Virus genome (UHGV): UHGV-0066004
From: a virus
Direction: 5' to 3' (one strand)
Length of the DNA: 64,000 nt
The notes under the pieces are model-generated. The model was not told the DNA's origin. It saw only the letters and a list, made by a program, of their open reading frames with translations, and did not search any database. Both the position numbers and the translations under genes were made by a program. Below are positions 27,350 through 50,469 of the stretch, one piece after another; position 1 is the stretch's first letter; the number at the start of each line of letters is the position of its first letter.

Positions 27350-27550
27350 TTATTCAGAGTCTGTAGCAGTCTCTTCTTTCTTAACTTCGAACTTTGCATC
27401 AACAGCATCAAGAAGTGCATCCATAGATGCTTCTTTAATATCAATGCCTGTTGCTACAGATAATCTGTCTGCAATTGCCATGATAGTATTCTGCATAAAT
27501 TCTAGCTTCTTGTTAGCTTCATAAAGTTCTTTATAAACGGTCTCGCTCAT
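27350..27550 (-). CDS. hypothetical small protein upstream of terminase
   Basis: 66 aa; too small to call small terminase with confidence. Confidence 0.4.
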   Translation of the reverse strand: MSETVYKELYEANKKLEFMQNTIMAIADRLSVATGIDIKEASMDALLDAVDAKFEVKKEETATDSE

Positions 27551-27775: not shown

Positions 27776-27851
27776 TGGAGAATCCGAAGGGACTCGAACC
27801 CTTATAAACCTGTTTTGCAGACAGGCACATAGCCATTTCTGTCACGGATTC
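27776..27851 (-). tRNA. tRNA-Cys (GCA)
   Basis: manual cloverleaf; acceptor GAATCCG/CGGATTC, anticodon loop CTGCAAA, CCA encoded. Confidence 0.75.
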
Positions 27852-27855
27852 AAAT

Positions 27856-27948
27856 TGGAGGAAGATACCAGACTTGAACTGGTACACCGATTTCTCAGCT
27901 ACTGGCAGTTTAGCAAACTGCTCCCTTACCTTTTAGGGTTAATCTTCC
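27856..27948 (-). tRNA. tRNA-Ser (GCT), type II
   Basis: 93 nt with long variable arm; anticodon loop TTGCTAA. Confidence 0.7.
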
Positions 27949-27950
27949 AT

Positions 27951-28685
27951 TTATTTCTGTAATGCGTTCTTCATTTCTGGTGTTGCAATAGTGTCAATTA
28001 CACCAGTTTTACAAGCATCATCAAACCAGTCTGGTAAGATACCTGCTAAGAACCCATTGATATTCGTTTTAAGGTACTCTGCAATAAGGGCAGCTTCTTC
28101 TTCAATCATCTGCACAACTTCATCTGCATAAGCTGTAATCTTTGAGATACCTTCATTAATCTTACTGACAGCTTGGTTAGCTAAATCAGAAACAGTATCA
28201 AGACCCTTGTCAATAGCGTCTTGTAAGTCACTTAATACATCGTTAACACTCTCTAGTGTACTGTTAATCGTATCAATAGCTTTTTGACCATATTCTGTAG
28301 CAACACCCATAATACCACTGAACGGTGTACAACCAACTTGTTCTCCTGCTGCACCCATAACATTGGAATATCCCTTTGCTACCTGCATACGTGATGAAAA
28401 CTCATCAATAGATTTTTGACCGTAGTCTGTCAGGGTCTTAGTAGTTGCTGTAGTGCTTGTAAGGCTTGTTGTAAAGCTGTTTAGAAGGACTGTTGTAAGT
28501 CCAGCAGCAACAAGCTTATCCTTTACTGTAGGGTCTGATACAGAGCTAATAGAGCTTACAAGTGATGTAGAGGCAGCTACGGTTCCACCGAGAACTGCTG
28601 CACCAGTAATAAGGGGGTTAGAAAACCCTTTACCGGTTTTTAAGAGATTGAAAATCTCCTTACCTTGTTCTGTCATCTCTTTCAT
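27951..28685 (-). CDS. hypothetical protein inside tRNA array
   Basis: track ORF 27951..28748 trimmed to internal Met (MKEMTEQ) because its 5' end overlaps a tRNA. Confidence 0.5.
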   Translation of the reverse strand: MKEMTEQGKEIFNLLKTGKGFSNPLITGAAVLGGTVAASTSLVSSISSVSDPTVKDKLVAAGLTTVLLNSFTTSLTSTTATTKTLTDYGQKSIDEFSSRMQVAKGYSNVMGAAGEQVGCTPFSGIMGVATEYGQKAIDTINSTLESVNDVLSDLQDAIDKGLDTVSDLANQAVSKINEGISKITAYADEVVQMIEEEAALIAEYLKTNINGFLAGILPDWFDDACKTGVIDTIATPEMKNALQK

Positions 28686-28703
28686 TAAGCACCTTTGAAA
28701 TTG

Positions 28704-28778
28704 GTAGTCCAGTGGGATTTGAACCCTCTTCTCATGTTTTTCAGACACGCGCTTTAACCATATAAGCTACTTGGACTA
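28704..28778 (-). tRNA. tRNA-Phe (GAA)
   Basis: acceptor TAGTCCA/TGGACTA perfect; anticodon loop CTGAAAA. Confidence 0.7.
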
Positions 28779-28783
28779 TAAAT

Positions 28784-28859
28784 TGGGGTGACCTACGGGA
28801 TTTGAACCCGTATAGACCATGTTCACAGCATGGGTCATTACCGTTTATGATAAGGCCAC
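28784..28859 (-). tRNA. tRNA-His (GTG)
   Basis: anticodon stem CCATG/CATGG, loop CTGTGAA. Confidence 0.7.
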
Positions 28860-28890
28860 ATTTAAGGACTCTCGTAAGAATCCTTAGAAG

Positions 28891-28966
28891 TGGCAGCGGC
28901 ATAAGGATTTGAACCTTAATAAGACAGCTTCAGAGACTGCTGCATTGCCAGTTATGCTATGCCGCT
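28891..28966 (-). tRNA. tRNA-Gln (CTG), tentative
   Basis: acceptor AGCGGCA/TGCCGCT; anticodon loop CTCTGAA with G-U closed stem. Confidence 0.6.
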
Positions 28967-28971
28967 AAATT

Positions 28972-29050
28972 TGGTACTCCATATCGGATTCGAACCGATA
29001 CATAACACAGATTTTAAGTCTGGCCTCTCTGCCAATTGGAGTAATGGAGC
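28972..29050 (-). tRNA. tRNA with Leu anticodon TAA, atypical short variable arm
   Basis: 79 nt; T-arm ATCGG-TTCGAAT-CCGAT; loop CTTAAAA; A73. Confidence 0.55.
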
Positions 29051-29052
29051 AT

Positions 29053-29128
29053 TGGCGGGGGATGTTGGAATTGAACCAACTTCTTCGATTTCAAAGACCG
29101 AGGTTTTAACCTTGTAAACTAATCCCCT
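29053..29128 (-). tRNA. tRNA-Gln (TTG)
   Basis: anticodon stem TCGGT/ATCGA, loop CTTTGAA. Confidence 0.65.
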
Positions 29129-29136
29129 TTAAATCT

Positions 29137-29694
29137 TTACTTTCTCAGTGGATGAATAAAGAATGCCAACATAACTCTTTCCCTTGAGAATGCTCTTTCT
29201 TCTGGGACAACACTTTTTAGTTTCCATCCAATATAAATTCTCCAGTAAAATTGTTTACCAAAGATTTTAATTGATGGGATAAAAGCGAATAATCCCCAAG
29301 CATTACTGTTCCACATTAGGAGATAACCTGTCTGATTATCTTCAGGGTCAGAACTTACGTTGATATTACCTTTCCACTTAGTAACATCTTTTACATCTCT
29401 TCCTAATACATGGTAAGAGAAGTTATAAGCTTTGTTTCTCCAGAGCCATCCGACTCTTTGCATGTAGACACCTAGTTTACCAATCCATCTGATATTAGCC
29501 CATCTTTTAACGTGACCTTCATCACCATCAATTGGGTTGTCATATGTCTCCATCCATCTGAACCCGAAAGGTAAGTGTCCTTTCTTCTCACTGTAGAATG
29601 GAACTACGAAAGGTGCTAAGATAACTGCTAGTATTGCTGCAAGTGGTTCTAGCAAAGCTAAGAAAATCCATGAAGCATATTTTAAGTATCTCAT
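29137..29694 (-). CDS. hypothetical membrane protein
   Basis: 185 aa; hydrophobic N-terminus, Trp-rich. Confidence 0.5.
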   Translation of the reverse strand: MRYLKYASWIFLALLEPLAAILAVILAPFVVPFYSEKKGHLPFGFRWMETYDNPIDGDEGHVKRWANIRWIGKLGVYMQRVGWLWRNKAYNFSYHVLGRDVKDVTKWKGNINVSSDPEDNQTGYLLMWNSNAWGLFAFIPSIKIFGKQFYWRIYIGWKLKSVVPEERAFSRERVMLAFFIHPLRK

Positions 29695-29933
29695 TGTCTA
29701 ACCCTCGTAAGGAGGTAAGCATTATTACTTGTTTCTGAGCTTTCTGGTAACATTGTCTCAAAATTGACACTTTTAAGTTGTCTTCCACCAAAGCAATGAC
29801 CAATAAATCTTTCTACTTTTATTGGGTCGCATTCCCATCCGACTTTTAAGAAAATGTGGGTATCTATAGTGGGAACCCTTACAAACTCAATACTATTGGG
29901 ATTTTCATGTTCAACGACGATTAATGTTTGCAT
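29691..29933 (-). CDS. hypothetical protein
   Basis: 80 aa, start-coupled to downstream ORF. Confidence 0.45.
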   Translation of the reverse strand: MQTLIVVEHENPNSIEFVRVPTIDTHIFLKVGWECDPIKVERFIGHCFGGRQLKSVNFETMLPESSETSNNAYLLTRVRQ

Positions 29934-29941
29934 AAATTCCT

Positions 29942-30017
29942 CTTGCTTATCTGGCGCAGGATAAGGGATTCGAACCCCTATTAACAGTTTCGTAGACTGT
30001 TGCTCTATCCATTTGAA
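29942..30017 (-). tRNA. tRNA-Arg (ACG)
   Basis: acceptor GCAGGAT/ATCCTGC; D-arm GTTC-AAATGGATA-GAGC; loop CTACGAA. Confidence 0.75.
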
Positions 30018-30022
30018 CTAAT

Positions 30023-30100
30023 CCTGCAAAATTGGTGTTCCAAGACGGATTCGAACCGTCACTAATACAAGGTTTGAGCTTGCATCCTCTGCCAATTGGG
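30023..30100 (-). tRNA. tRNA with Leu anticodon CAA, atypical short variable arm
   Basis: 78 nt; anticodon stem GCAAG/CTTGT, loop CTCAAAC; A73. Confidence 0.55.
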
Positions 30101-30101
30101 A

Positions 30102-30176
30102 TACTGGAACATGGTACTCACTAAAGGACTTGAACCTTTTTCTTCATCTTGTAAGGGTGGTGTTTTACCATATAAA
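30102..30176 (-). tRNA. tRNA-like, anticodon tentatively TAC (Val), weak anticodon stem
   Basis: good acceptor, D-arm and T-arm; anticodon stem only 3 of 5 pairs. Confidence 0.45.
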
Positions 30177-30276
30177 CTAAGCGAGTGTGAAAGAGGTCTG
30201 AAGTTGTGCCGCTAACTCAACTCCGTGGAATTTGTTACGGTCTTCAGTTGACACCAGCGGTCTTTCACTTGACCTC
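30176..30276 (-). ncRNA. structured RNA candidate (non-tRNA) within tRNA array
   Basis: terminal complementarity AGAGGTC...GACCTCT and internal CUGAAGACCG motifs related to the Y-RNA-like family. Confidence 0.3.
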
Positions 30277-30348
30277 TGAATTGGTGCTGCTCACAGGACT
30301 CGAACCCGCATTTCCATCCTTACAAGGGATGTGTAATAGCCAATTATA
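30272..30348 (-). tRNA. tRNA-Thr (TGT)
   Basis: anticodon stem CATCC/GGATG, loop CTTGTAA. Confidence 0.7.
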
Positions 30349-30355
30349 CGAAAGC

Positions 30356-30430
30356 AGCATTAATTTGGAGCATCCAGAGGGAATCGAACCCTCAACCTCA
30401 GTTTGGAAGACTGTAATTTTCCCGTTTAAA
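30356..30430 (-). tRNA. tRNA-Gly (TCC)
   Basis: acceptor GCATCCA/TGGATGC; loop CTTCCAA. Confidence 0.7.
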
Positions 30431-30436
30431 CTATGG

Positions 30437-30512
30437 ATGCACTAATTGGTGGAGAAGCAGGGAATTGAACCCTGTACTTAAGTTTGCAAAACTTATGTTT
30501 TAACCATGTAAA
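30437..30512 (-). tRNA. tRNA-Ala (TGC)
   Basis: anticodon stem TAAGT/ACTTA, loop TTTGCAA; T-arm CAGGG-TTCAATT-CCCTG. Confidence 0.7.
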
Positions 30513-30518
30513 CTACAT

Positions 30519-30594
30519 CCCCAATGTATGGTACAGGTGGAGGGAATTGAACCCATCGTCTTACTGATTAAGAGTCAGCCGCATAACCATTTTG
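30519..30594 (-). tRNA. tRNA-Lys (CTT), tentative
   Basis: anticodon stem GCTGA/TCAGT, loop CTCTTAA; weak T-stem. Confidence 0.55.
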
Positions 30595-30601
30595 CTACAC
30601 C

Positions 30602-30679
30602 TGCATTAATTTGGTAGGAGACAAGGGATTCGAACCCTCAAACACCAACTTCTAAGGATGGTAGGTTTACCAATTACCG
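30602..30679 (-). tRNA. tRNA with Leu anticodon TAG, atypical short variable arm
   Basis: 78 nt; T-arm GAGGG-TTCGAAT-CCCTT; loop CTTAGAA; A73. Confidence 0.5.
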
Positions 30680-30756
30680 TCAATCTCCCATTAAATCTTT
30701 TTAGAGAACTTCTAAGAACCTAAGCAACAAGGTTCCACAACAAGCTGTAATAACCT

Positions 30757-30783
30757 TAGAAGCCCTCTAAAAAGACCTAAAAA
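30757..30783 (-). terminator. stem-loop terminator candidate inside tRNA array
   Basis: aaagacc-loop-ggtcttt palindrome with U-run on minus-strand reading. Confidence 0.4.
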
Positions 30784-30937
30784 GGTCTTTGCATAGTCTT
30801 GTTTAATCCGGTGACTAGAACCTTTGGAGAGCTTGATATTATCTCTTCTCCGTGACACATACTAGGTGCTTTACTGTGCTTGTACGACAATACACGAGGG
30901 ATACCAAAGCAACATCCGAATGAAGCTTGGCTTTAAA

Positions 30938-31025
30938 CCTTATTAGGCGGTAAGTAAAGGAGTCGAACCCTCACCGTATCTCTACAGTGGCAACTGTTTT
31001 CAAGACAGTTTGGCTACCATTAGCC
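30938..31025 (-). tRNA. tRNA-Ser (TGA), type II
   Basis: 88 nt, long variable arm; anticodon stem ACTGT/ACAGT, loop CTTGAAA. Confidence 0.7.
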
Positions 31026-31038
31026 GCTACCTACCCCT

Positions 31039-31121
31039 AATAAGACTTTGGCATGGGACGGAGGAGTTGAACCCCTTTGAAACGGTTTTGGAGGCCGTTG
31101 CTCATGCCTTAGAGTCTTAAC
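31039..31121 (-). tRNA. tRNA-like, anticodon tentatively CCA (Trp), extended D region
   Basis: perfect acceptor ATGGGAC/GTCCCAT; loop CTCCAAA; about 7 extra nt in D region. Confidence 0.45.
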
Positions 31122-31263
31122 ATCGTCCCATATTATAATTCGAAGCTTACCGTATTATCTCAACACTGTAAAGCCCCTTCTCAGATTATTTACATGTTCT
31201 GGAAAACATGAGATACAGACCACCTCCCTACAGGAAGACCCGCTTAGGTCGTCTAAGTAATCT

Positions 31264-31340
31264 GCTAACTAATTGGCACACCCTACAGGATTCGAACCTG
31301 TAACTAACGATTTAGAAGACCGTTGCTCTATCCAATTGAA
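31264..31340 (-). tRNA. tRNA-Arg (TCT)
   Basis: D-arm GTTC-AATTGGATA-GAGC; loop CTTCTAA. Confidence 0.75.
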
Positions 31341-31587
31341 CTAAGGGTGCATTAATCTTTAAAGACTCTCTTAGAAAGCCCTTAAAGATGCCCACCTTAT
31401 TAATCATACCGTGGGCTAGTACGCCAAATTCTTTGATGAGGGATTGGAAGACCTCACTGGTGTTTAGCCTATCAAGCTACTGCCAGAAAAACATTGTCGT
31501 TTGCATTTATTTTAAATTTGCAAAATAGACGCTACGCAACGAAAACTAAGGTTACTATAAAGTAGTCACATCTCAATGTCAACAACT

Positions 31588-31663
31588 TTATTGAAATTGG
31601 TACTGGTAGGTGGAATCGAACCACCGATGTTCCCTTATCAGGGGAGTGTTATAACCTTCTTAA
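31588..31663 (-). tRNA. tRNA-Ile (GAT)
   Basis: T-arm GGTGG-TTCGATT-CCACC; loop CTGATAA. Confidence 0.7.
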
Positions 31664-31664
31664 C

Positions 31665-31741
31665 TATACCAGCTTGGAGGTTCAGATGGGAATCGAACCC
31701 ACATTCATAGGGCTTATGAGACCCTTGCATTACCTTATCTG
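31665..31741 (-). tRNA. tRNA-Met (CAT)
   Basis: perfect acceptor GGTTCAG/CTGAACC; loop CTCATAA. Confidence 0.7.
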
Positions 31742-31745
31742 CGAC

Positions 31746-31821
31746 TGAACCATATTGGTAGAAGTGGAGGGATTCGAACCCATCGCCTGTCAGATTAAAA
31801 GTCTGCTGCATCACCATTCTG
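31746..31821 (-). tRNA. tRNA-Lys (TTT)
   Basis: T-arm GGGTTCGAATCCC; loop CTTTTAA. Confidence 0.7.
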
Positions 31822-31825
31822 CTAC

Positions 31826-31969
31826 ACTTCCATTAAATTATCTTTGTAGATAAGCTACCCAGACTTGCTTAAGGTCTGTAGCGATGTGCCTTGTTGGGTT
31901 TAAATCTAGAATTTACCCTTTCACCCTTTGTGGTCGCATACTCACAGGTAAGCTTAATAACTTATCTAC
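31826..31969 (-). ncRNA. structured RNA candidate closed by a 19-bp perfect inverted repeat
   Basis: aattatctttgtagataag at 31826-31844 is the exact reverse complement of 31951-31969; internal CCAGAC/GTCTGG hairpin; no convincing ORF. Confidence 0.4.
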
Positions 31970-31970
31970 A

Positions 31971-32102
31971 AAGATAATTACCAGACCGTTGTTTATCATC
32001 TTAAGTGCTACCATTACACCAACTCGACATCTGCCGAGTGAAGGAATCGAACCTTCGCCTTTTCTTTACCGGAGAAATAGATTGTTTAAGTTTTGCTGTA
32101 AA
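31971..32102 (-). ncRNA. Y RNA-like (YrlA-type) candidate: circularly permuted tRNA-like module closed by a bulged terminal helix
   Basis: minus strand reads 5' CAGAAGACCG ... T-arm GAAGG-TTCGATT-CCTTC, acceptor 3' strand ACTCGGC, AGAT loop, acceptor 5' strand GTCGAGT, TG, D-arm GTGT-AATGGTA-GCAC ... AACGGTCTGG 3'; ends pair with AAG bulge; no anticodon arm. Confidence 0.55.
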
Positions 32103-32115
32103 CGGTCTTCTGTAA

Positions 32116-32188
32116 ATTTGTTGAGCCAGACCAAGTTTAAATTTTCAAAATTAAATTGGCTTGAAATTTCATACGTTCTTGCTGTATT
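32116..32188 (-). ncRNA. Y RNA-like helix element (no tRNA-like module)
   Basis: same closing helix (CAGAAGACCAA ... TTGGTCTGG) around an AT-rich hairpin. Confidence 0.4.
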
Positions 32189-32249
32189 TGGTCTTCTGCT
32201 CCTTTAAAGGATACTCGTAAGGACCCTTTAAGGGAGGGGCTAAATAGCC

Positions 32250-32327
32250 CTCTCAAAATTGGCGGTTACGAAGGGATTTGAACCCTCATCATCTCCCGTG
32301 ACAGGGGAGTATTTTAACCAAATTAAA
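32250..32327 (-). tRNA. tRNA-Asp (GTC)
   Basis: perfect anticodon stem CTCCC/GGGAG, loop CTGTCAC. Confidence 0.75.
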
Positions 32328-32332
32328 CTACA

Positions 32333-32420
32333 TAACCTTTATTGGTGTGCCGTGTAGGAGTCGAACCTACCGAGTCTCAATGACAAGGGATTTACAGTCC
32401 CCACCGCTACCATCTACGGG
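32333..32420 (-). tRNA. tRNA-Tyr (GTA), type II
   Basis: 88 nt with long variable arm; loop CTGTAAA. Confidence 0.7.
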
Positions 32421-32429
32421 ATAACGACA

Positions 32430-32506
32430 CATTTAAATTTGGCGGTTAGTCAGGGATTCGAACCCTGTGCCATTCGCTTAACAGGCGACCGCACATACCT
32501 TATATG
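32430..32506 (-). tRNA. tRNA-Asn (GTT)
   Basis: T-arm CAGGG-TTCGAAT-CCCTG; loop CTGTTAA. Confidence 0.65.
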
Positions 32507-32517
32507 CTTCCTAACCT

Positions 32518-32577
32518 TAATACATTGCCAGACCGTGTTTTTTCTTTTATCCGCAAAAAGTATTTTGTTGCTGAATA
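32518..32577 (-). ncRNA. Y RNA-like helix element
   Basis: closing helix GCAGAAGACCGT ... ACGGTCTGGC with 3-nt bulge. Confidence 0.4.
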
Positions 32578-32583
32578 CGGTCT

Positions 32584-32660
32584 TCTGCAAAATTGGAGGC
32601 GGGTGCAGGAGTCGAACCTGCCGATACCATGCTAATGAGACATGTGAGACGCCCTTTCTC
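32584..32660 (-). tRNA. tRNA (CAT); Met/Ile2 type, 1-72 mismatch
   Basis: loop CTCATTA; acceptor TGCGGGT/ACCCGCC with T1-C72 mismatch. Confidence 0.55.
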
Positions 32661-32671
32661 TATACCCGCAA

Positions 32672-32743
32672 TTCTCAATGACCAGACCAAATATCTTCTT
32701 TGTCCGATTTCGTGTCAGATGAGTAGATTAAGTTTGCTGTAAT
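32672..32743 (-). ncRNA. Y RNA-like helix element
   Basis: closing helix CAGAAGACCAATT ... ATTTGGTCTGG. Confidence 0.4.
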
Positions 32744-32750
32744 TGGTCTT

Positions 32751-32828
32751 CTGTCAAAACTGGCGTTCCAGAAGGGATTTGAACCCTCAGATATCCACTT
32801 TGAAAGAGTGGTGACTTTACCATTTTGT
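32751..32828 (-). tRNA. tRNA-Glu (TTC)
   Basis: perfect acceptor GTTCCAG/CTGGAAC; anticodon stem CCACT/AGTGG, loop CTTTCAA. Confidence 0.75.
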
Positions 32829-32835
32829 CTACTGG

Positions 32836-32912
32836 AACATTAATTTGGTCTCTGTTGGAGGACTTGAACCTCCGGCCTTACCGCCCCAAACGGAACGCTC
32901 TACCAAGCTGAG
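32836..32912 (-). tRNA. tRNA-Pro (TGG)
   Basis: D-arm GCTC-AGCTTGGTA-GAGC; T-arm GGAGG-TTCAAGT-CCTCC; loop TTTGGGG. Confidence 0.7.
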
Positions 32913-33087
32913 CTAAACAGAGATAAACTTTTCAAACTCTATGTAACCACTTTAACATTATTTTTTAGTGGTTGTCAAGAACTTTTTTAAAATATTTTTC
33001 AGTATCTTAGAAAAGCTCTCGTTTCGTTTCTATGTAGAACATATTAAAGGGTATCAAACACATTGTCAATACCCTTTTTAAAACTTT

Positions 33088-42946: not shown

Positions 42947-42957
42947 AATATCTTAAG

Positions 42958-42990
42958 AGCCTCCTTAATTGGGGGCTTTTTAATTTTTAT
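42958..42990 (+). terminator. rho-independent terminator ending the plus-strand block
   Basis: gcctcc-ttaatt-gggggc hairpin followed by tttttaatttttat. Confidence 0.6.
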
Positions 42991-43080
42991 AAAATTTTAT
43001 CGGTTGTCCCAACCTCTGGGTCACCATCATATGTGAATAAAATATCTACCCTTCTTAACAACCTTCTTAATCTTACTCTC

Positions 43081-43112
43081 TATATAGTTATATAGTACTA
43101 TATAGTATCTTA
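43081..43112. repeat. tandem tatatagt repeats
   Basis: tatatagt x3 in direct tandem. Confidence 0.6.
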
Positions 43113-43539
43113 GTAACTATCTAGTGGTCTTAATAGCCCTCTGTATAGCCCTTCTAAATAGCCATCTAAACACTCTTCTAACAAACCTTCTTAACAATCT
43201 ATACAATCACCTTAACCATCTCTCTACATCCTCTTAGAAGCTCCTATACACCTCTTAATCTCTATGTTAGCTATGTTACTCTCTATAGGTGTTCACTAGG
43301 AAATACTAAGCCTCTATATAGACTGTTTTAACAAACTTAACAGGAATATCTTTACAGGCCTTATCTCACAAGGTCTAACACGGTACTAACAAGGTATCTT
43401 ATAAGCCTGTTTCTACCTGTATTTTTAAAAGACTGTATAGGTAATTATTCAGAATTTTAAAATTTTTATAAAATAGGACTATCAAGTCATTTTTTAGGGT
43501 CTTTGAAGGAACTGAAAAATATCTGTAGAAGATGTATAT

Positions 43540-44090
43540 CTGCTTGGTAGCCCTTAACAGCTCCCTTACAAGTACTTTGCAAAATTTTAAAATATCCTTA
43601 ACAATCTCTTAACAGCTCTCACATCTTCTTAACAACTCTTCAAAGGTCTTAACAGACTCTTAACAGAACTAACAAGGGTGTAACAGTTTCTTAACAGTTG
43701 ATACATAGGCTTAACAGAATCTTAACAGATGACTAACAAGAGCTAACAAGTTAATTTTAAAGAGTTATTTTGTTAAGATAATTAACAAGTTTCTAACAAG
43801 TGTTTAATCTTTTTAACAAGCTATTAACACGGTCACTATCTCTGGTCTTATCGTTCCCTTCTCCTCTTAGTGATTCTTTAAACATACCTCTTAAAAGCTC
43901 TCTATAGCTCTTTATAGGCTCTTTTAAGCATCTTCCTAGTATTTACCCCTCAACTGTATGGATAGCTCTTTATAAGGCTTTACAGGAGCTTTTAAGGCTA
44001 TGCCAAAGATTCTTACAAGGCTTTTACGTGGTCTTAACAGAGATTTAACAAGGGGCTAACAAGTTGCTAACAAGTGCCTTAAAAGCATAA
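43540..44090. repeat. iteron array: about 20 direct copies of CTTAACAG / CTAACAAG-type motif
   Basis: visible by eye; no ORF over 60 aa in 42950-44560. Confidence 0.7.
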
Positions 44091-44101
44091 CTATGTAGGG
44101 T

Positions 44102-44152
44102 TTGTTAAGAAATTGTTAAGAAATTGTTAAGAAAATGTTAAGAAAATGTTAA
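44102..44152. repeat. five tandem copies of TTGTTAAGAAA (inverse of the upstream iteron)
   Basis: ttgttaagaaa x5 head-to-tail, facing the direct array. Confidence 0.75.
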
Positions 44153-44580
44153 GGGGGCTAGCATTTACGTAACTTTATAGCCTCTTTTACGTAACTTTTA
44201 AGCTACTTTTAAGCCCCTATAACATACTTTTAAGACAATAACAAGCCCTTTATAGTAGTTCACAAGAATACTAACGAGATGATAAAGCTTACACCCTTAT
44301 AAGATTCTTTTAAGGCTCTGGGAAGCTCTAGGAAGGGCTTTTTAGAGTGGGTTAATATGATTGCTTAAGTTAGGTTGATAAGGCTGTTATAGAGCTTTAT
44401 AGAGCGTTTTAGTGGTTGCCCTTCCCTTTCGGGTTATGGGCTTACATTTAAGGGAAAGATTAAGTTGATTTGATAAAAGGCTATAGAGTAGACTATAGAG
44501 TTATTGCTTTTTAAGGTCTGGTAAAGTTCTGACTTGTTAGGTGGGTTTTAAGATTCTGGAAAGGAATTTGATAGACGTAA

Positions 44581-44635
44581 AAAAGCCCCATTTAAGGGGC
44601 TGTAAAGGTATCTGGGGCTATTTAGCCCCGTTGCG
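44581..44635 (-). terminator. tandem terminator hairpins ending the minus-strand early block
   Basis: agcccc-attta-aggggct and ctggggc-tattta-gccccg hairpins; minus-strand reading gives U-run after the first. Confidence 0.55.
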
Positions 44636-44639
44636 GCGT

Positions 44640-44888
44640 TTAGTTAGTGCCTTCTTTGTCGTAGTACAGGGAGACGATTTTTTCTCCCCAATAGTGATAA
44701 GTGTGACCATGCGTAAGAACTTCCTGTTTTGTTTCCTCCCAGAATTCATCAGAGGGGTTGTAGTCACTGATGGTCTGACTGATAAGGCCTTTCACCATTT
44801 CAAAGGCGTTATCAGTACCTACAAGGTCAAATTTAACGTCCAGAGAGTAGAAGCCAAATTCGTTAACAGTTGCGCGGATAGTAGCCAT
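44640..44888 (-). CDS. hypothetical early protein
   Basis: 82 aa; preceded by conserved upstream cassette. Confidence 0.55.
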   Translation of the reverse strand: MATIRATVNEFGFYSLDVKFDLVGTDNAFEMVKGLISQTISDYNPSDEFWEETKQEVLTHGHTYHYWGEKIVSLYYDKEGTN

Positions 44889-44975
44889 TTTAGAATCTCC
44901 AGTTTAGGAAGTTGATTAAGGGTTTTATTTAGTGGGGAAGGTCATTCCCTCCCCGTTGATTGACAATTTACAGAC
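44889..44975 (-). repeat. conserved upstream cassette, family 1 (hairpin GGGGAAGG-TCATT-CCCTCCCC + RBS)
   Basis: near-identical ~80-bp sequence recurs before six minus-strand genes. Confidence 0.7.
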
Positions 44976-45498
44976 TTTTGATTGTTTCGTCAATATCTTT
45001 TTCAATATCTTTTAAAGTTTTTTCTAAGTTCTTGATATTGAAAGATAATCCTTCTCCCAGTGTCTTAGAGTAACCGCTAGGACGTGAGTCATATAGTTCA
45101 ATTTCTTCTACTTCGAAGAGGCTAACCAACTCACCGCTTACACTGTAAGCCATTGAAACAGTATTTACAGGGGCTTTATAGAACTTGTTCAAGGACTTGA
45201 TAGAACGTTCATAAGCCATTTTATAACCGTTTAAAAGGTTTTTAACGTGGTTACGAACGTTTTTACACTCATCTAGATAAATCTCTAAGAATAACGGTAA
45301 TAACTCCGCTACAGCTTGCATAAAGTGAGAGACTACAACGGTTGCAACATTACGACGATGTACATAATAAGCCCCGTTTTCTGATTTGGTGATGGTTGCA
45401 AAGTGTACCCCATTACAACGGAACTCATATGTGTCTTTAACAGGCTTAGACATTACAGCATTTGAACGAATGTAGTTGATAGCTTTAAACTTGTTCAT
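44968..45498 (-). CDS. hypothetical early protein
   Basis: 176-aa ORF. Confidence 0.55.
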   Translation of the reverse strand: MNKFKAINYIRSNAVMSKPVKDTYEFRCNGVHFATITKSENGAYYVHRRNVATVVVSHFMQAVAELLPLFLEIYLDECKNVRNHVKNLLNGYKMAYERSIKSLNKFYKAPVNTVSMAYSVSGELVSLFEVEEIELYDSRPSGYSKTLGEGLSFNIKNLEKTLKDIEKDIDETIKSL

Positions 45499-45570
45499 TT
45501 TGACTCTCCTAGTTTAAGGATTTTATTTAGTGGGGAGGGATGACCTCCCGTTGATTAGTAATTTACTTGT
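45499..45570 (-). repeat. conserved upstream cassette, family 1 variant
   Basis: ggggagggatgacctcccg hairpin variant plus shared RBS. Confidence 0.6.
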
Positions 45571-45717
45571 TTTGATAGCTGATTGCAAGCAATTTTTTAA
45601 GCTTATCTATAAAGAATCTTTTAAGTGAATCCCTTTTAGATAAACCCCCTCGAACAAAGTTACCAATGTCAAGGGGTATTGTCAACACTTTTTTAAAAGT
45701 TTTTTATAAGTTATTGA

Positions 45718-46059
45718 TTAACTGATGAATATTTTTTCAGGTTTTACATAGCTGATACGCTGACTTTTTAGCAGGTCATCCCAGATTAGAGCGGCAATAT
45801 GAGGATAACCGGATTCACGTAAGAGCTTCATTGTTTTACTTCTCGTTTCAAAACGGCTTGCGTAGTACTCACTATTCAGAGTTGTTTTCTTCCCTTCGTT
45901 GTCTACATGGATAATCTGCATCACTTGAAAGGGGCTTGTGTCCTCGCCTTTGTTCCACTGTTCAAAGTATTTTAGGCACTGCATAGGCGACATCTTATCA
46001 CTAACCTGAGTTGACCAAGATGCGCCAGCTTTATCGGTAATTACGGTTACATAAGACAT
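45718..46059 (-). CDS. hypothetical early protein
   Basis: 113-aa ORF. Confidence 0.55.
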   Translation of the reverse strand: MSYVTVITDKAGASWSTQVSDKMSPMQCLKYFEQWNKGEDTSPFQVMQIIHVDNEGKKTTLNSEYYASRFETRSKTMKLLRESGYPHIAALIWDDLLKSQRISYVKPEKIFIS

Positions 46060-46140
46060 TTTTGAATCTCCTAGTTTAAGGACTTTACTTAGTGGGGAAG
46101 GTCATTCCCTCCCCGTTGATTGACAATTTACAGACTTTTA
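46060..46140 (-). repeat. conserved upstream cassette, family 1
   Basis: same sequence as copy at 44889. Confidence 0.7.
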
Positions 46141-46150
46141 TCAGGCTTGT

Positions 46151-46384
46151 CTAGTCTTTTTCAATGATAATTTCATATTGACCGTCAACGCTGTCAAAAT
46201 AGATGCCGTCTTCATCTTCTGTCTTAAAGTAGCATTGTATATCATCACTTGCGGGATAGTCTTGCCGTGCTATCTGGCAAGCTTGAATAGCGTTTTCTTT
46301 ACTTCCTGTGAACTCCTCAAGCCCTTTAAAATCACATGAATGGCCATTACAAATTGAGAGGATGAGATAAATGGTTGTAAGCAT
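46151..46384 (-). CDS. hypothetical small secreted protein
   Basis: 77 aa; hydrophobic N-terminus. Confidence 0.5.
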   Translation of the reverse strand: MLTTIYLILSICNGHSCDFKGLEEFTGSKENAIQACQIARQDYPASDDIQCYFKTEDEDGIYFDSVDGQYEIIIEKD

Positions 46385-46447
46385 GATTTAAGCCCTCTAA
46401 ATGGCCCTGTATGGGCCTTAAGTTGGAAATTAGTGTCTTTGTACTGC

Positions 46448-47014
46448 TTAGTCTAAAAAGTCGCTTAGATTGCGCTCTGTGAGATTCTCGGTAATTTTAT
46501 CCAGCAGGTCACAAAACAAAGAAGAAGTATCCCCGCTATTCTGTACAATTTTTGCAATACTCAACAAATCATCGTCAATATAGCCCAAATTGCGGTTAGT
46601 TGTATCAGGTACAAAGAATGGCGCATACATTGCACTAAATTTCGTCGAGTGAATACCGATAATCCAATCTTTATCAAAGTAACCGGTAAAGCTGGCGATT
46701 TCGCTCATGTTGTCACAAGAATAATCGTCCTCAAGTTCTTCCTCTGGGATATCCATCTCAATTACAATCACTTCCTGCGTTTCCATTTGGAAAGCTGCCG
46801 TAATAAGCCCCGACTCTAAAGCGTTTTGAATGCAGCGTTCACGGATGTAAGAGGCTTCTTCATCTTCCAGGCATTCCGTCTTGATAATCTTATCCATCGG
46901 GTAAACGTAAAAACAATCATCCATGTAAGAGCAGTTCCAGATACCTTCCGGCTTGTCGCCACCTTTAAGCAGGTTTACAAAGTTTTTCAGAGTAGTGCCG
47001 TGATAGCATTTCAT
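46448..47014 (-). CDS. hypothetical early protein
   Basis: 188 aa, acidic. Confidence 0.55.
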   Translation of the reverse strand: MKCYHGTTLKNFVNLLKGGDKPEGIWNCSYMDDCFYVYPMDKIIKTECLEDEEASYIRERCIQNALESGLITAAFQMETQEVIVIEMDIPEEELEDDYSCDNMSEIASFTGYFDKDWIIGIHSTKFSAMYAPFFVPDTTNRNLGYIDDDLLSIAKIVQNSGDTSSLFCDLLDKITENLTERNLSDFLD

Positions 47015-47100
47015 TTTTGAATCTCCTAGTTTAAGGATTTAGTGGTAAAGCTCTTTATCTGGGGCTTACTTTATCGAACTATAAGCCCCTTGTAAAGTAC
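47015..47100 (-). repeat. conserved upstream cassette, family 2 (hairpin GGGGCTTA-N13-TAAGCCCC + RBS)
   Basis: near-identical sequence recurs before five minus-strand genes. Confidence 0.7.
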
Positions 47101-47101
47101 T

Positions 47102-47305
47102 TTATTTGTTATTTTTGACAACTTTTAAAACTGCAAGATAACCTAAGCAATAAGAATCACCGAAGAGAGTCCTACCCATGAAAGAATCCTCTGCAATATC
47201 TTTCGCCGTGACGGTTTTTTCTACGCCGTGAAAGAGAACTACATCACCAACTTTAATATCTTTGATGTGTGTAGTTTCAATGGTTAAGCCGTTAATAATA
47301 GCCAT
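47102..47305 (-). CDS. hypothetical small protein
   Basis: 67-aa ORF. Confidence 0.45.
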   Translation of the reverse strand: MAIINGLTIETTHIKDIKVGDVVLFHGVEKTVTAKDIAEDSFMGRTLFGDSYCLGYLAVLKVVKNNK

Positions 47306-47400
47306 TTTGAATCTCCTAGTTTAAGGACTTTACTTAGTGGGGAAGGTCATTCCCTCCCCGTTGATGTGTAATTTAATCTATCTAAAAACCAGTGTCAACA
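47306..47400 (-). repeat. conserved upstream cassette, family 1
   Basis: sequence repeat. Confidence 0.7.
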
Positions 47401-47405
47401 GTTTT

Positions 47406-47810
47406 TTAGAGTTCTGCATAAATTGCGTCACAGATATCACGGAAGTCGTGATTTGATAGGTTACGTTGTAACCAAGTGGCGAAAAAGTCAGCGATTGCAT
47501 AATTGGCATCGTAGTCAACTGATAGCCACACTTTTACGGCGAATCTGAACATTTTTAAATCAAGCTCTTTATTCATTACCTTAGATTTGCCCAACATGTC
47601 GACCATTTCATATTGTGCGCCGTCTAGCGTGATACCTGCTGCAACGTCAGCCAATGAGCTTTTTACGTTTTCAATGTCTAAGATAACACTTTGAATCTTT
47701 CCGATAATGTTGTGCAATGTCTCATCAGGTGCTGATGACGTGATAACATTAATCCGGTTAACGGTCAAACGTGCTTTTAAGATTGATAACTCACGGTTGT
47801 TAATAGCCAT
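47406..47810 (-). CDS. hypothetical early protein
   Basis: 134-aa ORF. Confidence 0.55.
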   Translation of the reverse strand: MAINNRELSILKARLTVNRINVITSSAPDETLHNIIGKIQSVILDIENVKSSLADVAAGITLDGAQYEMVDMLGKSKVMNKELDLKMFRFAVKVWLSVDYDANYAIADFFATWLQRNLSNHDFRDICDAIYAEL

Positions 47811-47895
47811 TTTAGAATCTCCAATTTAGGATTTAGTGGTAAAGCTCTTTATCTGGGGCTTACTTTATCGAACTATAAGCCCCCTGTAAAGTACT
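47811..47895 (-). repeat. conserved upstream cassette, family 2
   Basis: sequence repeat. Confidence 0.7.
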
Positions 47896-47896
47896 T

Positions 47897-48169
47897 TTAC
47901 ACTAAATGCAGCTTTTTACCTTTTACCATGATGTAACTCGATGCGCTATTGCTACAAACATCTTGATAAATTCTGCGCAAACGTCCTTCGTAGTGTACTT
48001 TCCAACTAGTTGGAATCTTTTTACCATATCCGGTAGCAGTTTTTTGGAGTCCTGCTACTTGCCAATCTAAGATATGTTGCTCAGCTTGTAAATCCTCAAA
48101 GCACATTACACCATCTACATAGTGACGTAAAGTTACATTTAAAGTGCGACCGTTGTTAGTAGTATACAT
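47897..48169 (-). CDS. hypothetical early protein
   Basis: 90-aa ORF. Confidence 0.5.
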   Translation of the reverse strand: MYTTNNGRTLNVTLRHYVDGVMCFEDLQAEQHILDWQVAGLQKTATGYGKKIPTSWKVHYEGRLRRIYQDVCSNSASSYIMVKGKKLHLV

Positions 48170-48258
48170 TTTTGAATCACCTAGTTTAAGGACTTTATTT
48201 AGTGGGGAAGGTCATTCCCTCCCCGTTGATGTGTAATTTAATCTATCTAAAAACCAGT
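48170..48258 (-). repeat. conserved upstream cassette, family 1
   Basis: sequence repeat. Confidence 0.7.
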
Positions 48259-48259
48259 G

Positions 48260-48592
48260 TCAAGAATTTTGTTTTCGTTTGCTCAATTCTTGAACAATTA
48301 CAGCGTAGTAGTCTTTTAAGTCAATGATATTTAAAGCATTTATCAGAGAATTATAATCATCAACTAACTGGAAATCATCTTTGAAGATGTCACTTATCTG
48401 ATAGGTTTTCGCTTTATATCTGAAGCTCATCTCTAGCCGCTTTATTTGCTCATCACTGAGACGCCCTAGAAAGCTTTCTACAAGGTTATTGCTAACCTGC
48501 TGTGTGATTGCCTTATTTGCTAGATTATAGGCTTTATATGCCTTATAGAGCGCGAGAATGGCAATGATTGCAGTGATGCCAGTCATTAACAT
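48260..48592 (-). CDS. hypothetical membrane protein
   Basis: 110 aa; N-terminal hydrophobic segment. Confidence 0.5.
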   Translation of the reverse strand: MLMTGITAIIAILALYKAYKAYNLANKAITQQVSNNLVESFLGRLSDEQIKRLEMSFRYKAKTYQISDIFKDDFQLVDDYNSLINALNIIDLKDYYAVIVQELSKRKQNS

Positions 48593-48882
48593 GGTGTTTC
48601 CTCTTTACGTGATACTTTGCCATTTACAGATATCTCATAAGAATCTAGCAAATCACTTTTAGACTTTACTGGACTTTTAAAAGTATCATCATAAATATTT
48701 ACTTGCAATACAGGTTTTTTGTACTCCCTGCAGCTATTCCATAAGCAAATCACTACGCGACGGCCTTTGATTTTTCCGTGTAACCATTCCATAACATCGT
48801 GGCTATTTCTTGATGTCTCGATAAAATCAATTTTGTTGAGTAACTTGCTTAGATTTTCACGGACTTTATTTGACAATTTCAT
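48586..48882 (-). CDS. hypothetical early protein
   Basis: 98-aa ORF. Confidence 0.5.
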   Translation of the reverse strand: MKLSNKVRENLSKLLNKIDFIETSRNSHDVMEWLHGKIKGRRVVICLWNSCREYKKPVLQVNIYDDTFKSPVKSKSDLLDSYEISVNGKVSRKEETPC

Positions 48883-48965
48883 TTTTGAATCTCCAGTTTA
48901 GGATTTAGTGGTAAAGCTCTTTATCTGGGGCTTAAGATATCAACTTTTAAGCCCCCTGTAAAGTA
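48883..48965 (-). repeat. conserved upstream cassette, family 2 (variant loop)
   Basis: sequence repeat. Confidence 0.65.
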
Positions 48966-48970
48966 CTTTA

Positions 48971-49276
48971 TCAGTTAATTTTCAGTTTTGCATAGCCTCT
49001 GATTGTTCGAATGGGGGAGGTTAAGGCCACGCGTTTGATATATGATTTTTTAGTGTATACGTTTGTTTTACCGAGTGTTTCCACACCTTTAAAAAGGTTA
49101 TTTGAACTGCGTTTCAAGGTTAAATGTTTATCAACCTTTACGCCCCATCTTACAGCAGACTGTTTTCCGTTGTCAACCACTTTCCCGCATAACTTTTTAG
49201 CCATGATACGAGCGTCATCACGAGTCTTTGCGGTAATTACAACGTTTTTGATAATAGCCATTTTTAAGTTCTCCAA
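48971..49276 (-). CDS. hypothetical early protein
   Basis: 101-aa basic ORF. Confidence 0.5.
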   Translation of the reverse strand: MENLKMAIIKNVVITAKTRDDARIMAKKLCGKVVDNGKQSAVRWGVKVDKHLTLKRSSNNLFKGVETLGKTNVYTKKSYIKRVALTSPIRTIRGYAKLKIN

Positions 49277-49347
49277 TTTAGGATTTAGTGGTAAAGCTCT
49301 TTATCTGGGGCTTACTTTATCGAACTATAAGCCCCTTGTAAAGTACT
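49262..49347 (-). repeat. conserved upstream cassette, family 2
   Basis: sequence repeat. Confidence 0.7.
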
Positions 49348-49731
49348 TTATTTGTTAATTTTGAAGATAGTTACATAACCATCGCTGCCGATGATTTGTG
49401 ATGCTCCAGCTTTTTCTACTTGATAGCCCATATTTTCAAGATGGTAAACAGCATCATCATAACCATATGCGCCGCCCTGATAACGTCTCTTATCACATCT
49501 TACTAATACCTTTCCACGTCCTGCCAGTGCATTTAGTACGGCTTTTTCACTTGAAAGTGTACCATCTAACATGGTTGCCGTGTAATGGTTGATTCTATTC
49601 CCGTTTACATCATACTTAAAATTGAATGCGTGAACAACGATAATGTTACCTTTAAAATTTTCATCAAGTGACTTCTCCAGTGCGTTGCGAAAGTTGTCTT
49701 TGTTGATGAATTTAGGTGCACGATATGCCAT
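49348..49731 (-). CDS. hypothetical early protein
   Basis: 127-aa ORF. Confidence 0.55.
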   Translation of the reverse strand: MAYRAPKFINKDNFRNALEKSLDENFKGNIIVVHAFNFKYDVNGNRINHYTATMLDGTLSSEKAVLNALAGRGKVLVRCDKRRYQGGAYGYDDAVYHLENMGYQVEKAGASQIIGSDGYVTIFKINK

Positions 49732-49820
49732 TTTTGAATCTCCTAGTTTAAGGGTTAATTTGGTAAAGCTCTTTATCTGGGGCTTACTTTATCGAACTAT
49801 AAGCCCCTTGTAAAGTACTT
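49732..49820 (-). repeat. conserved upstream cassette, family 2
   Basis: sequence repeat. Confidence 0.7.
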
Positions 49821-49821
49821 T

Positions 49822-50043
49822 TTATTTATCGTAGTAGTAAATTGCTGTCTGTCTCGTAAATTTTTTAGTATTTCTTGTAAGGTAGCAATTAGAGTTTATA
49901 GCTGTTTCTACATAGTTGCAATAGTCAGCTTCTGATATTCTGGACCATACGCCACAGATTTGCATGTAAAAACGTTTTGCCTTTGTGTTAACGTTAGTTG
50001 TAACCATCAATTCGCGACTGTAAAGCATTATTTCGCGCTCCAT
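49822..50043 (-). CDS. hypothetical small protein
   Basis: 73-aa ORF. Confidence 0.45.
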   Translation of the reverse strand: MEREIMLYSRELMVTTNVNTKAKRFYMQICGVWSRISEADYCNYVETAINSNCYLTRNTKKFTRQTAIYYYDK

Positions 50044-50216
50044 TTCTCAAAGAGTTCAGCAGGGAAACGTTCGCTATACCCTTTTAAGGAAAAAGTATTA
50101 TCTTTGTGGATAGCTTCCACCTGATAAACCTTATAAGAGCGTATAGTTAGCATTTTGTAAGAGTATTCGTGCTTAATGTTAACCTCATCGCCAACTTTAA
50201 TTTTTCTTGATGCCAT
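50028..50216 (-). CDS. hypothetical small protein
   Basis: 62-aa ORF. Confidence 0.45.
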   Translation of the reverse strand: MASRKIKVGDEVNIKHEYSYKMLTIRSYKVYQVEAIHKDNTFSLKGYSERFPAELFEKWSAK

Positions 50217-50285
50217 TTTTGAATCTCCAGTTTAGGATTTTATTTAGTGGGGAAGGTCATTCCCTCCCCGTTGATGTAAATATTA
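50217..50285 (-). repeat. conserved upstream cassette, family 1
   Basis: sequence repeat. Confidence 0.7.
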
Positions 50286-50469
50286 GATAACCACGTTCAA
50301 AGAGTCAATAAAAATTTTAAAAATATTTTTGGCAAAACTGTAATGAAACGGGTGCGCACGACTACCACAAAACAGAACGCAAATCAAGAATTATTTTTCA
50401 ATCCGCTACAAATTTTTCTCTTGACTTTTGGGGAGAGGAAGAGGGGGAGAGGGGTTGGGCTGGCTGTCT

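Follow-up and report, generated by a model that had tools for sequence, protein, structure and literature searches.

The stretch analysed here is the viral genome sequence UHGV-0066004 (64,000 nucleotides, referred to below as the window), which contains, between positions 42950 and 44640, a region without genes and rich in short repeats, on which two gene blocks converge. Comparison with relatives whose ends have been mapped indicates that this region holds the genome ends of a Felix O1-like myovirus with a short, exact and non-permuted direct terminal repeat (DTR), and that arrays of a TTAACA motif lying in it would serve as a platform for packaging or end recognition; we put the probability of this reading at about 0.8. 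Taken separately, the identification of the region as the concatemer junction, with positions 43546–44158 as the collapsed DTR of 613 bp, is very probable, and the odds that the arrays are a platform for packaging proteins are roughly even. The genome-end identity is already established for relatives, whereas the boundary elements and the conserved, phased arrangement of the motifs are undescribed: the literature searched yielded no account of motif arrays or of any packaging signal for this phage group, and the text of the PhageMaP paper on Bas63 gives no data for the region. A preliminary description had seen here a protein-binding platform, with a replication origin, a packaging or terminus region and a T5-type injection-stop region as candidate functions, and had considered the function not determinable from sequence. 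This was too pessimistic, as the relatives settle what the region is: their ends, mapped by experiment or by computation, fall inside it at conserved sequences, which bears out the packaging or terminus option, while the T5-type option is not upheld. The features which carry the argument are the following.

43546..44158, no strand assigned: single collapsed copy of the DTR, ~613 bp, placed by homology to the mapped ends of Ro111lw, NBEco005, H12 and UAB_Phi87.
43533..43545, no strand assigned: 13-mer TGTATATCTGCTT, directly outside the DTR boundary, with a single exact occurrence in the window.
43555..43829, + strand: main array of 17 (C)TTAACA(G/A) cores, spaced by 9–11, 20 or ~40 bp, the first core lying 9 nucleotides inside the 43546 boundary.
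44035..44072, + strand: second array of four TAACA cores at an exact 11-bp spacing (Tandem Repeats Finder, core scan and alignment).
44102..44152, - strand: inverted tandem array, five copies of TTGTTAAGAAA as seen on the + strand (- strand reading TTTCTTAACAA), with its end 7 nucleotides from the 44158 boundary (Tandem Repeats Finder and alignment).

The DTR was placed at these coordinates because the mapped ends of relatives coincide there and the boundary sequences are invariant; its single, mid-window copy reflects the permuted, collapsed form of the sequence. The virion orientation of the deposited Ro111lw, NBEco005 and H12 records is the reverse complement of the window. A 613-bp DTR was assigned to Ro111lw by PhageTerm (PMC6454146), and the first 1.2 kb of its record are non-coding; the record starts and finishes with one exact 613-bp repeat, which corresponds to the window from 44158 to 43546. 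NBEco005 has an exact repeat of 651 bp at both record ends, with the same two boundaries as Ro111lw. H12 was also assigned a DTR by PhageTerm (PMC11737134); its record starts with GCCCCCTTAACA and ends with ...AAATGCTA, the resulting junction is identical to that of Ro111lw and NBEco005, and its DTR is ~580 bp long by our own reading. These three PhageTerm-based records all start at one nucleotide, GCTA^GCCCCC (the caret marks the boundary here and below). For UAB_Phi87, the ends were determined by Bal31 digestion and run-off sequencing, giving a DTR of 608 bp (PMC4837284). The published DTR sequence aligns to 608 bp of the UAB_Phi87 record and to window positions 43544–44128, the alignment reaching ~44150 by inspection across the tandem array, and the run-off ends lie within 2 nucleotides of the PhageTerm boundary on one side and 8–9 nucleotides on the other when array copy number is allowed for.

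Further records point the same way. Short direct terminal repeats have been reported for Felix O1 itself, and a 439-bp PhageTerm DTR for SPARTY (Kolesnikvirus). The records of Ro111lw (613 bp), NBEco005 (651 bp), SPARTY (439 bp) and a Kolesnikvirus-like contig from IMG/VR (444 bp) each begin and end with an exact repeat. Fixed, non-permuted ends are reported for relatives in the literature, by the Bal31-sensitive fragments and run-off sequencing of UAB_Phi87 (PMC4837284), and by the PhageTerm "DTR" class of Ro111lw, H12 and SPARTY. A headful pac site does not fit the exact repeats with identical boundaries in relatives, the PhageTerm class being DTR and not pac. The large terminase is reported to cluster with DTR-type terminases (PMC4837284). 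Some record ends were set aside: the start of the UAB_Phi87 record (JN225449) lies in the tRNA cluster and was not taken as a physical end, the published DTR sequence being used instead; the start of the Z31 record is arbitrary; and the 127-bp terminal repeats of NJ12 (OQ845959) and PC79-13 (OR687644.2) resemble assembler overlaps and were not counted as DTRs. The NJ12 and PC79-13 contigs each have one end that maps close to the DTR boundary, at window positions 43537 and 43567 (a distance of ~10–20 bp), contig breaks which presumably result from a pile-up of read ends.

By homology to the mapped relatives, the virion ends lie at ...CTGCTT^GGTAGCCC... (43545/43546) and ...GGGGGC^TAGC... (44158/44159), and the intervening ~613 bp are carried at each end of the packaged DNA. 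Both contexts, ...GATGTATATCTGCTT^GGTAGCCCTTAACA... and ...GAAAATGTTAAGGGGGC^TAGC(A/G/T)TTTACGTAA..., are invariant in an alignment of 13 genomes. The 13-mer TGTATATCTGCTT occurs once in each of 18 of the 30 loci compared, Kolesnikvirus loci included, and abuts the DTR wherever a DTR is defined: at 614–626 in Ro111lw (DTR 1–613), at 652–664 in NBEco005 (DTR 1–651) and at 2049–2061 in SPARTY (DTR copy from 2062). SPARTY has almost no DNA that can be aligned with the window, yet the 13-mer precedes its DTR (...TTGTATATCTGCTT^AGTGG...), and the other end of the repeat reads ...AAGTGGC^TAACC, compared with ...GGGGGC^TAGC in the window. Candidate elements for recognition or cleavage by the terminase are the 13-mer and, at the opposite boundary, GGC^TA. 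The tetranucleotide GCTA (TAGC) is found at both Felixounavirus cut sites, but with a different geometry in SPARTY, and is kept as an observation. In two relatives (L021 and NJ12/L015-L016), 24 bp (TTGATTCGGTAGAATCTACCTCAT) are inserted just left of 43531, some 15 bp beyond the DTR boundary, and in the alignment the 13-mer and the boundary are intact despite this.

The TTAACA repeats are over-represented between these boundaries. TTAACAR has 75 matches in the window against 41 expected, a number that none of 100 shuffles reaches, and 21 of them lie in 43055–44130 and 17 within 43546–44158; the preliminary description, which had counted about 20 direct copies, was accurate in its coordinates and counts. 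In the 613-bp core there are 14 TTAACA against 0.5 expected from the 6-mer count. The TAACA core occurs 30 times on the + strand and 10 times on the - strand of the region, mostly at spacings of 11 or 20 bp. Within the DTR there are 21 cores on the + strand (17 in 43555–43829 and 4 in 44035–44072) and six on the - strand, five of which make up the TTGTTAAGAAA tandem array. The latter had been described as five head-to-tail copies at 44102–44152, inverse to the upstream motif, and Tandem Repeats Finder recovers it at 44102–44153 with a period of 11, 4.7 copies and 97% matches. Read 5' to 3' inward, both virion ends consequently open with ...CCCTTAACA. The 21 + strand cores of the DTR are phased at 10.3 bp with a coherence of 0.77, which none of 2000 spacing-preserving permutations reaches. 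Because their positions are coherent with this period, the TTAACA cores are predicted to face one side of the helix. The earlier proposal of a protein-binding platform is supported indirectly by this phasing and by the selective conservation of the cores.

Across the 13 genomes, conservation reaches 98.5% in the TAACA cores and 89.4% in the remainder of the DTR (p = 7e-11). With the exception of the one at 43712, the cores of the main array are each conserved in 11–13 of the 13 genomes, and the number of + strand cores is steady at 20–22. The terminal 11-bp unit is more variable, with five copies in the window phage and, among 12 aligned relatives, three copies in 11 and four in one; this distribution marks the five-copy state as a recent expansion, located at the very end of the genome. 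In Mooglevirus (70–78% identity), the first ten cores are at nearly the same relative positions, with a phase of 10.4 bp. The DTR of SPARTY has 14 + 7 cores in a similar layout, and the motif is phased there too. These observations bear on the idea that the arrays are slippage products without function, lying in junk DNA that separates convergent operons. Such an origin would fit the 11-bp tandem array, whose copy number varies between 3 and 5, and the right spacer, which gains and loses 11- and 22-bp units. It does not account for the selective conservation of the cores, for the core positions kept by Mooglevirus at its degree of divergence, for the phased arrays of the same motif in a Kolesnikvirus DTR that is barely alignable, or for a left spacer as conserved as the genes, and we consider it extremely improbable.

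The main alternative is an iteron-type origin of replication, in which the phased TTAACA sites would be occupied by an initiator that melts adjacent AT-rich DNA, instead of or besides packaging, with which it could coexist. Direct repeats in helical phase, as found for the 21 + strand cores (10.3 bp, 0 of 2000 permutations), are in line with such an origin, and AT-rich stretches do adjoin the arrays (GC content of 0.24 in 43400–43499 and 0.26 in 43700–43799). In T7, the promoter phiOL is annotated at nucleotide 405, near the left end, and secondary origins of replication have been linked to phiOL and phiOR. On the other hand, no initiator-like gene is recognised beside the region, the neighbouring genes having no Pfam domain. 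GC skew, the cumulative form of which had been suggested as a check for an origin, tracks gene orientation and gives no independent origin signal. In their geometry, the arrays begin and end within 7–9 nucleotides of the mapped cut sites, with the second one inverted at the far boundary, so that it is the ends which are followed and not a melting site. An origin as the explanation of the arrays is rather unlikely.

Returning to end recognition by a packaging protein, the following mechanism may be proposed. The concatemer would carry one copy of the repeat between genomes, and the repeat would be duplicated during packaging in a T7-like manner; a single repeat copy in the concatemer which is duplicated at packaging is a general mechanism (PMC10438801). 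The terminase would cut the concatemer at the two fixed boundary sites. The 21 + 6 TTAACA cores would be cooperative sites for a putative phage protein, either the equivalent of a small terminase or an end-recognition factor, and the bound protein would wrap or loop the repeat and place the nuclease at both boundaries. The arrays start within one helix turn of each cut site and face each other, which suggests that such a complex gives order to the entire repeat and sets the nuclease at both boundaries. The full version of this proposal, with the TTAACA arrays as the docking platform of the small-terminase equivalent or end-recognition protein of the Ounavirinae, the whole ~0.6-kb repeat looped, both cuts made in one complex, and the platform perhaps doubling as an origin, is tentative and has somewhat less than even chances of being correct.

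Several points weigh against the reading of the region as genome ends with a packaging platform. The ends of the window phage are deduced from relatives that are 84–93% identical to it, and PhageTerm boundaries can err by a few nucleotides. In UAB_Phi87, only two SpeI sites flank the region, and the terminal fragments predicted from them, ~4.43 and 2.75 kb with the boundaries homologous to those of Ro111lw and ~4.43 and 2.74 kb with the published boundaries, are ~80–110 bp off the published sizes of the Bal31-sensitive SpeI bands, 4322 and 2819 bp (PMC4837284). The agreement is approximate, and is a consistency check and no proof. Conserved, phased short repeats are equally expected of a replication origin or of a regulator-binding array. 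Finally, Pfam and PHROGs show neither a DNA-binding domain nor a small terminase in the nine flanking genes or in a 66-amino-acid open reading frame (ORF) upstream of the large terminase gene TerL. No small terminase is listed in the Pharokka-annotated H12 record, and none is annotated in the subfamily. The 66-amino-acid ORF (27350–27550, - strand) is acidic, lies immediately upstream of TerL, matches phrog_4397 (which has no assigned function) and has no Pfam domain; it is, by position alone, a candidate for the small terminase.

Outside the DTR, the region consists of two spacers and two terminators.

42955..42980, + strand: Rho-independent terminator after the last gene of the + strand block, which is the left-end block of the virion, from the terminator scan, with a terminator also annotated there in ASO1A.
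42981..43532, no strand assigned: left non-coding spacer, C/T-rich on the + strand, adjoining the DTR (Tandem Repeats Finder and k-mer enrichment).
44159..44583, no strand assigned: right non-coding spacer with TTT(T/A)AAG, TATAGAG and TTTACGTAAC repeats (Tandem Repeats Finder, alignment and k-mer enrichment).
44584..44601, - strand: Rho-independent terminator after the last gene of the - strand block, which is the right-end block of the virion, from the terminator scan, with an ASO1A annotation at the same place.

The order in the window is thus terminator, 550-bp conserved spacer, 13-mer TGTATATCTGCTT, DTR at 43546–44158, 425-bp spacer and terminator, and the terminators which had been proposed for both converging blocks are recovered as hairpins at 42955–42980 (+) and 44601–44584 (-). 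As described earlier, the stretch is non-coding: no ORF of at least 40 amino acids is found between 42946 and 44541, and none of at least 50 in the homologous stretch of 13 related genomes, where ORFs of 30–49 amino acids are inconsistently retained. Hypothetical proteins of 25–53 amino acids have been annotated in the DTR or non-coding region of H12 (CDS0001 and CDS0002) and UAB_Phi87 (Phi87_32 to Phi87_34). These are probably spurious calls, since none is kept across the 13 aligned genomes. The left spacer contains a TATATAGT tandem, period-12 repeats of the CTTCTAA type (43128–43200) and a few TTAACAA copies. The tandem, which corresponds to the tatatagt repeats already noticed, is placed by Tandem Repeats Finder at 43080–43107 with a period of 10 and 3 copies, and accounts for three of the four + strand TATATAGT copies of the whole window. 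Likewise, all four window copies of CTATAG(A/C)G, two per strand, lie inside the region, in agreement with the repeats of this type reported before. Further arrays with periods of 10 to 12 are detected by Tandem Repeats Finder in the region, and k-mer enrichment gives CTCTATATAG and TCTTAACAA as over-represented words of the left spacer, and TTTTAAG and TATAGAG as those of the right one. The left spacer (42981–43545) is 94–96.5% identical to that of five relatives, which is at least the identity of the neighbouring genes. The right spacer is 81–94% identical to that of relatives, its 11- and 22-bp units being gained and lost at 44164–44211 in the alignment. Intrinsic curvature of the DTR was considered and dropped, as its AA/TT dinucleotide periodicity is unexceptional (0.81, below the background maximum of 1.37).

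Another explanation is that the arrays bind a transcriptional regulator or a nucleoid-type protein controlling or insulating the terminal blocks, or that the spacers encode non-coding RNAs. The 94–96% conservation of the left spacer, matching the surrounding coding DNA, could be read in this way, as could the terminators on both sides. Nevertheless, Rfam gives no match at the gathering score (best E-value of 0.16, at 26 bits against a threshold of 55 bits), a scan for sigma-70 promoters returns 10 promoter-like sites against 10.9 in shuffles and hence no excess, no second TTAACA cluster is present in the 64 kb, near any promoter, and both gene blocks read into the region and not out of it, all of which makes this explanation improbable. 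A further rival is a T5-type injection-stop signal, at which the entry of DNA would pause once a first segment is inside. The direct and inverted repeats close to a genome end are superficially T5-like, but the terminal repeat is ~0.6 kb (0.44–0.65 kb in relatives) and has no conserved ORF, a first-step-transfer segment would have no pre-early genes to express, and the genes beside both ends point toward the ends. Such a signal has hardly any likelihood here.

With regard to its setting, the region matches 257 phage records, nearly all from Felixounavirus and related Ounavirinae, of which 200 cover at least 80% of it, with a best identity of ~90%. The window is a Felixounavirus genome, its nearest records being ~90% identical overall (a 12-kb query agrees with the query of the region), and it has the layout typical of Felix O1, with the structural genes and the tRNA cluster on the - strand. 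TerL is found at 25730–27343 (phrog_979, E = 2e-233) and adjoins the portal gene; 26 tRNA genes, with small ORFs in between, occupy 27776–32922 on the - strand, an arrangement usual for this genus. On a circular or concatemeric map, both terminal gene blocks converge on the region and are transcribed into it, toward the ends. Annotated relatives show the homologous region as empty, as "repeat_region" or as bearing terminators, and most of the matching records inspected place it internally, several of them opening at rIIA or terL.

Beside the right spacer, the - strand block of small genes at 44898–50315 holds two families of repeated intergenic cassettes of ~44–100 nucleotides, examples being 47014–47113, 47808–47907, 48880–48979, 49260–49359 and 49732–49831, and 45496–45539, 46058–46101, 47303–47346 and 48168–48211. 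Each cassette contains a GGGGCTTA...TAAGCCCC hairpin. They look like reiterated modules of a terminator and a translation start in an early-gene region, and are probably the counterparts of the 57-bp direct repeats reported for Felix O1.

The placement of the DTR fixes the true genome ends of the window phage. Correct ends are useful for rebooting and engineering phages of the Felix O1 type, which serve in Salmonella and E. coli diagnostics and biocontrol, and for packageable vectors. The 13-mer, the two cut-site contexts and the ~27 phased TTAACA sites are defined targets for seeking the DNA-recognition component of packaging in the Ounavirinae.

Among known systems, the DTRs of other Ounavirinae (UAB_Phi87, Ro111lw, NBEco005, H12 and SPARTY) are homologous in sequence, at 84–93% identity within the genus, and share identical boundary sequences (the 13-mer on one side and ...GGC^TA... 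on the other) and the same two flanking gene blocks. The window phage differs in having five terminal 11-bp units where most relatives have three, and the window in holding the DTR once, mid-sequence. T5 also has repeat-rich DNA near its genome end, but its terminal repeat is ~10 kb long (PMC7764154) and encodes the pre-early genes, unlike the gene-free repeat of ~0.6 kb found here, and the parallel drawn earlier does not hold. Small terminases are known to bind repeated elements, such as the R sites of lambda cosB and the pacL and pacR boxes of SPP1, and phased direct repeats of 10–11 bp occur in plasmid centromeres and iterons, e.g. R1 parC, which is bound by ParR. These systems have in common with the window several short sites in helical phase beside a cleavage or assembly site, and by analogy such sites suggest cooperative wrapping by an oligomeric protein. 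With ~27 sites, the arrays here are larger than those of cosB or pac, and neither a homologous protein nor a homologous sequence turned up.

In mechanism, the T7 concatemer junction comes closest. The motif is unrelated, the early promoters of T7 read inward from the left end whereas both terminal blocks read outward here, and T7 has a known small terminase, gp18, while none is known for the Ounavirinae. Both have a short, exact and non-permuted terminal repeat (160 bp in T7), and T7 likewise carries a directly repeated 7-mer, CCTAAAG, in arrays inside and beside its terminal repeat, which were reportedly named SRL and SRR by Dunn and Studier in 1983. The first 400 bp of T7 contain 11 CCTAAA, three within the 160-bp repeat and the other eight past it, with spacings that are mostly 13 or 26 bp. 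Insertions close to where the left repeat ends (positions 142 and 162) are deleterious in T7, while most other loci at the ends tolerate them (PMC11482910). The two layouts differ in that most of the T7 copies lie outside the repeat at a 13-bp spacing, whereas most of the copies described here lie inside it, at a phase of ~10.3 bp and with an inverted array at the far end.

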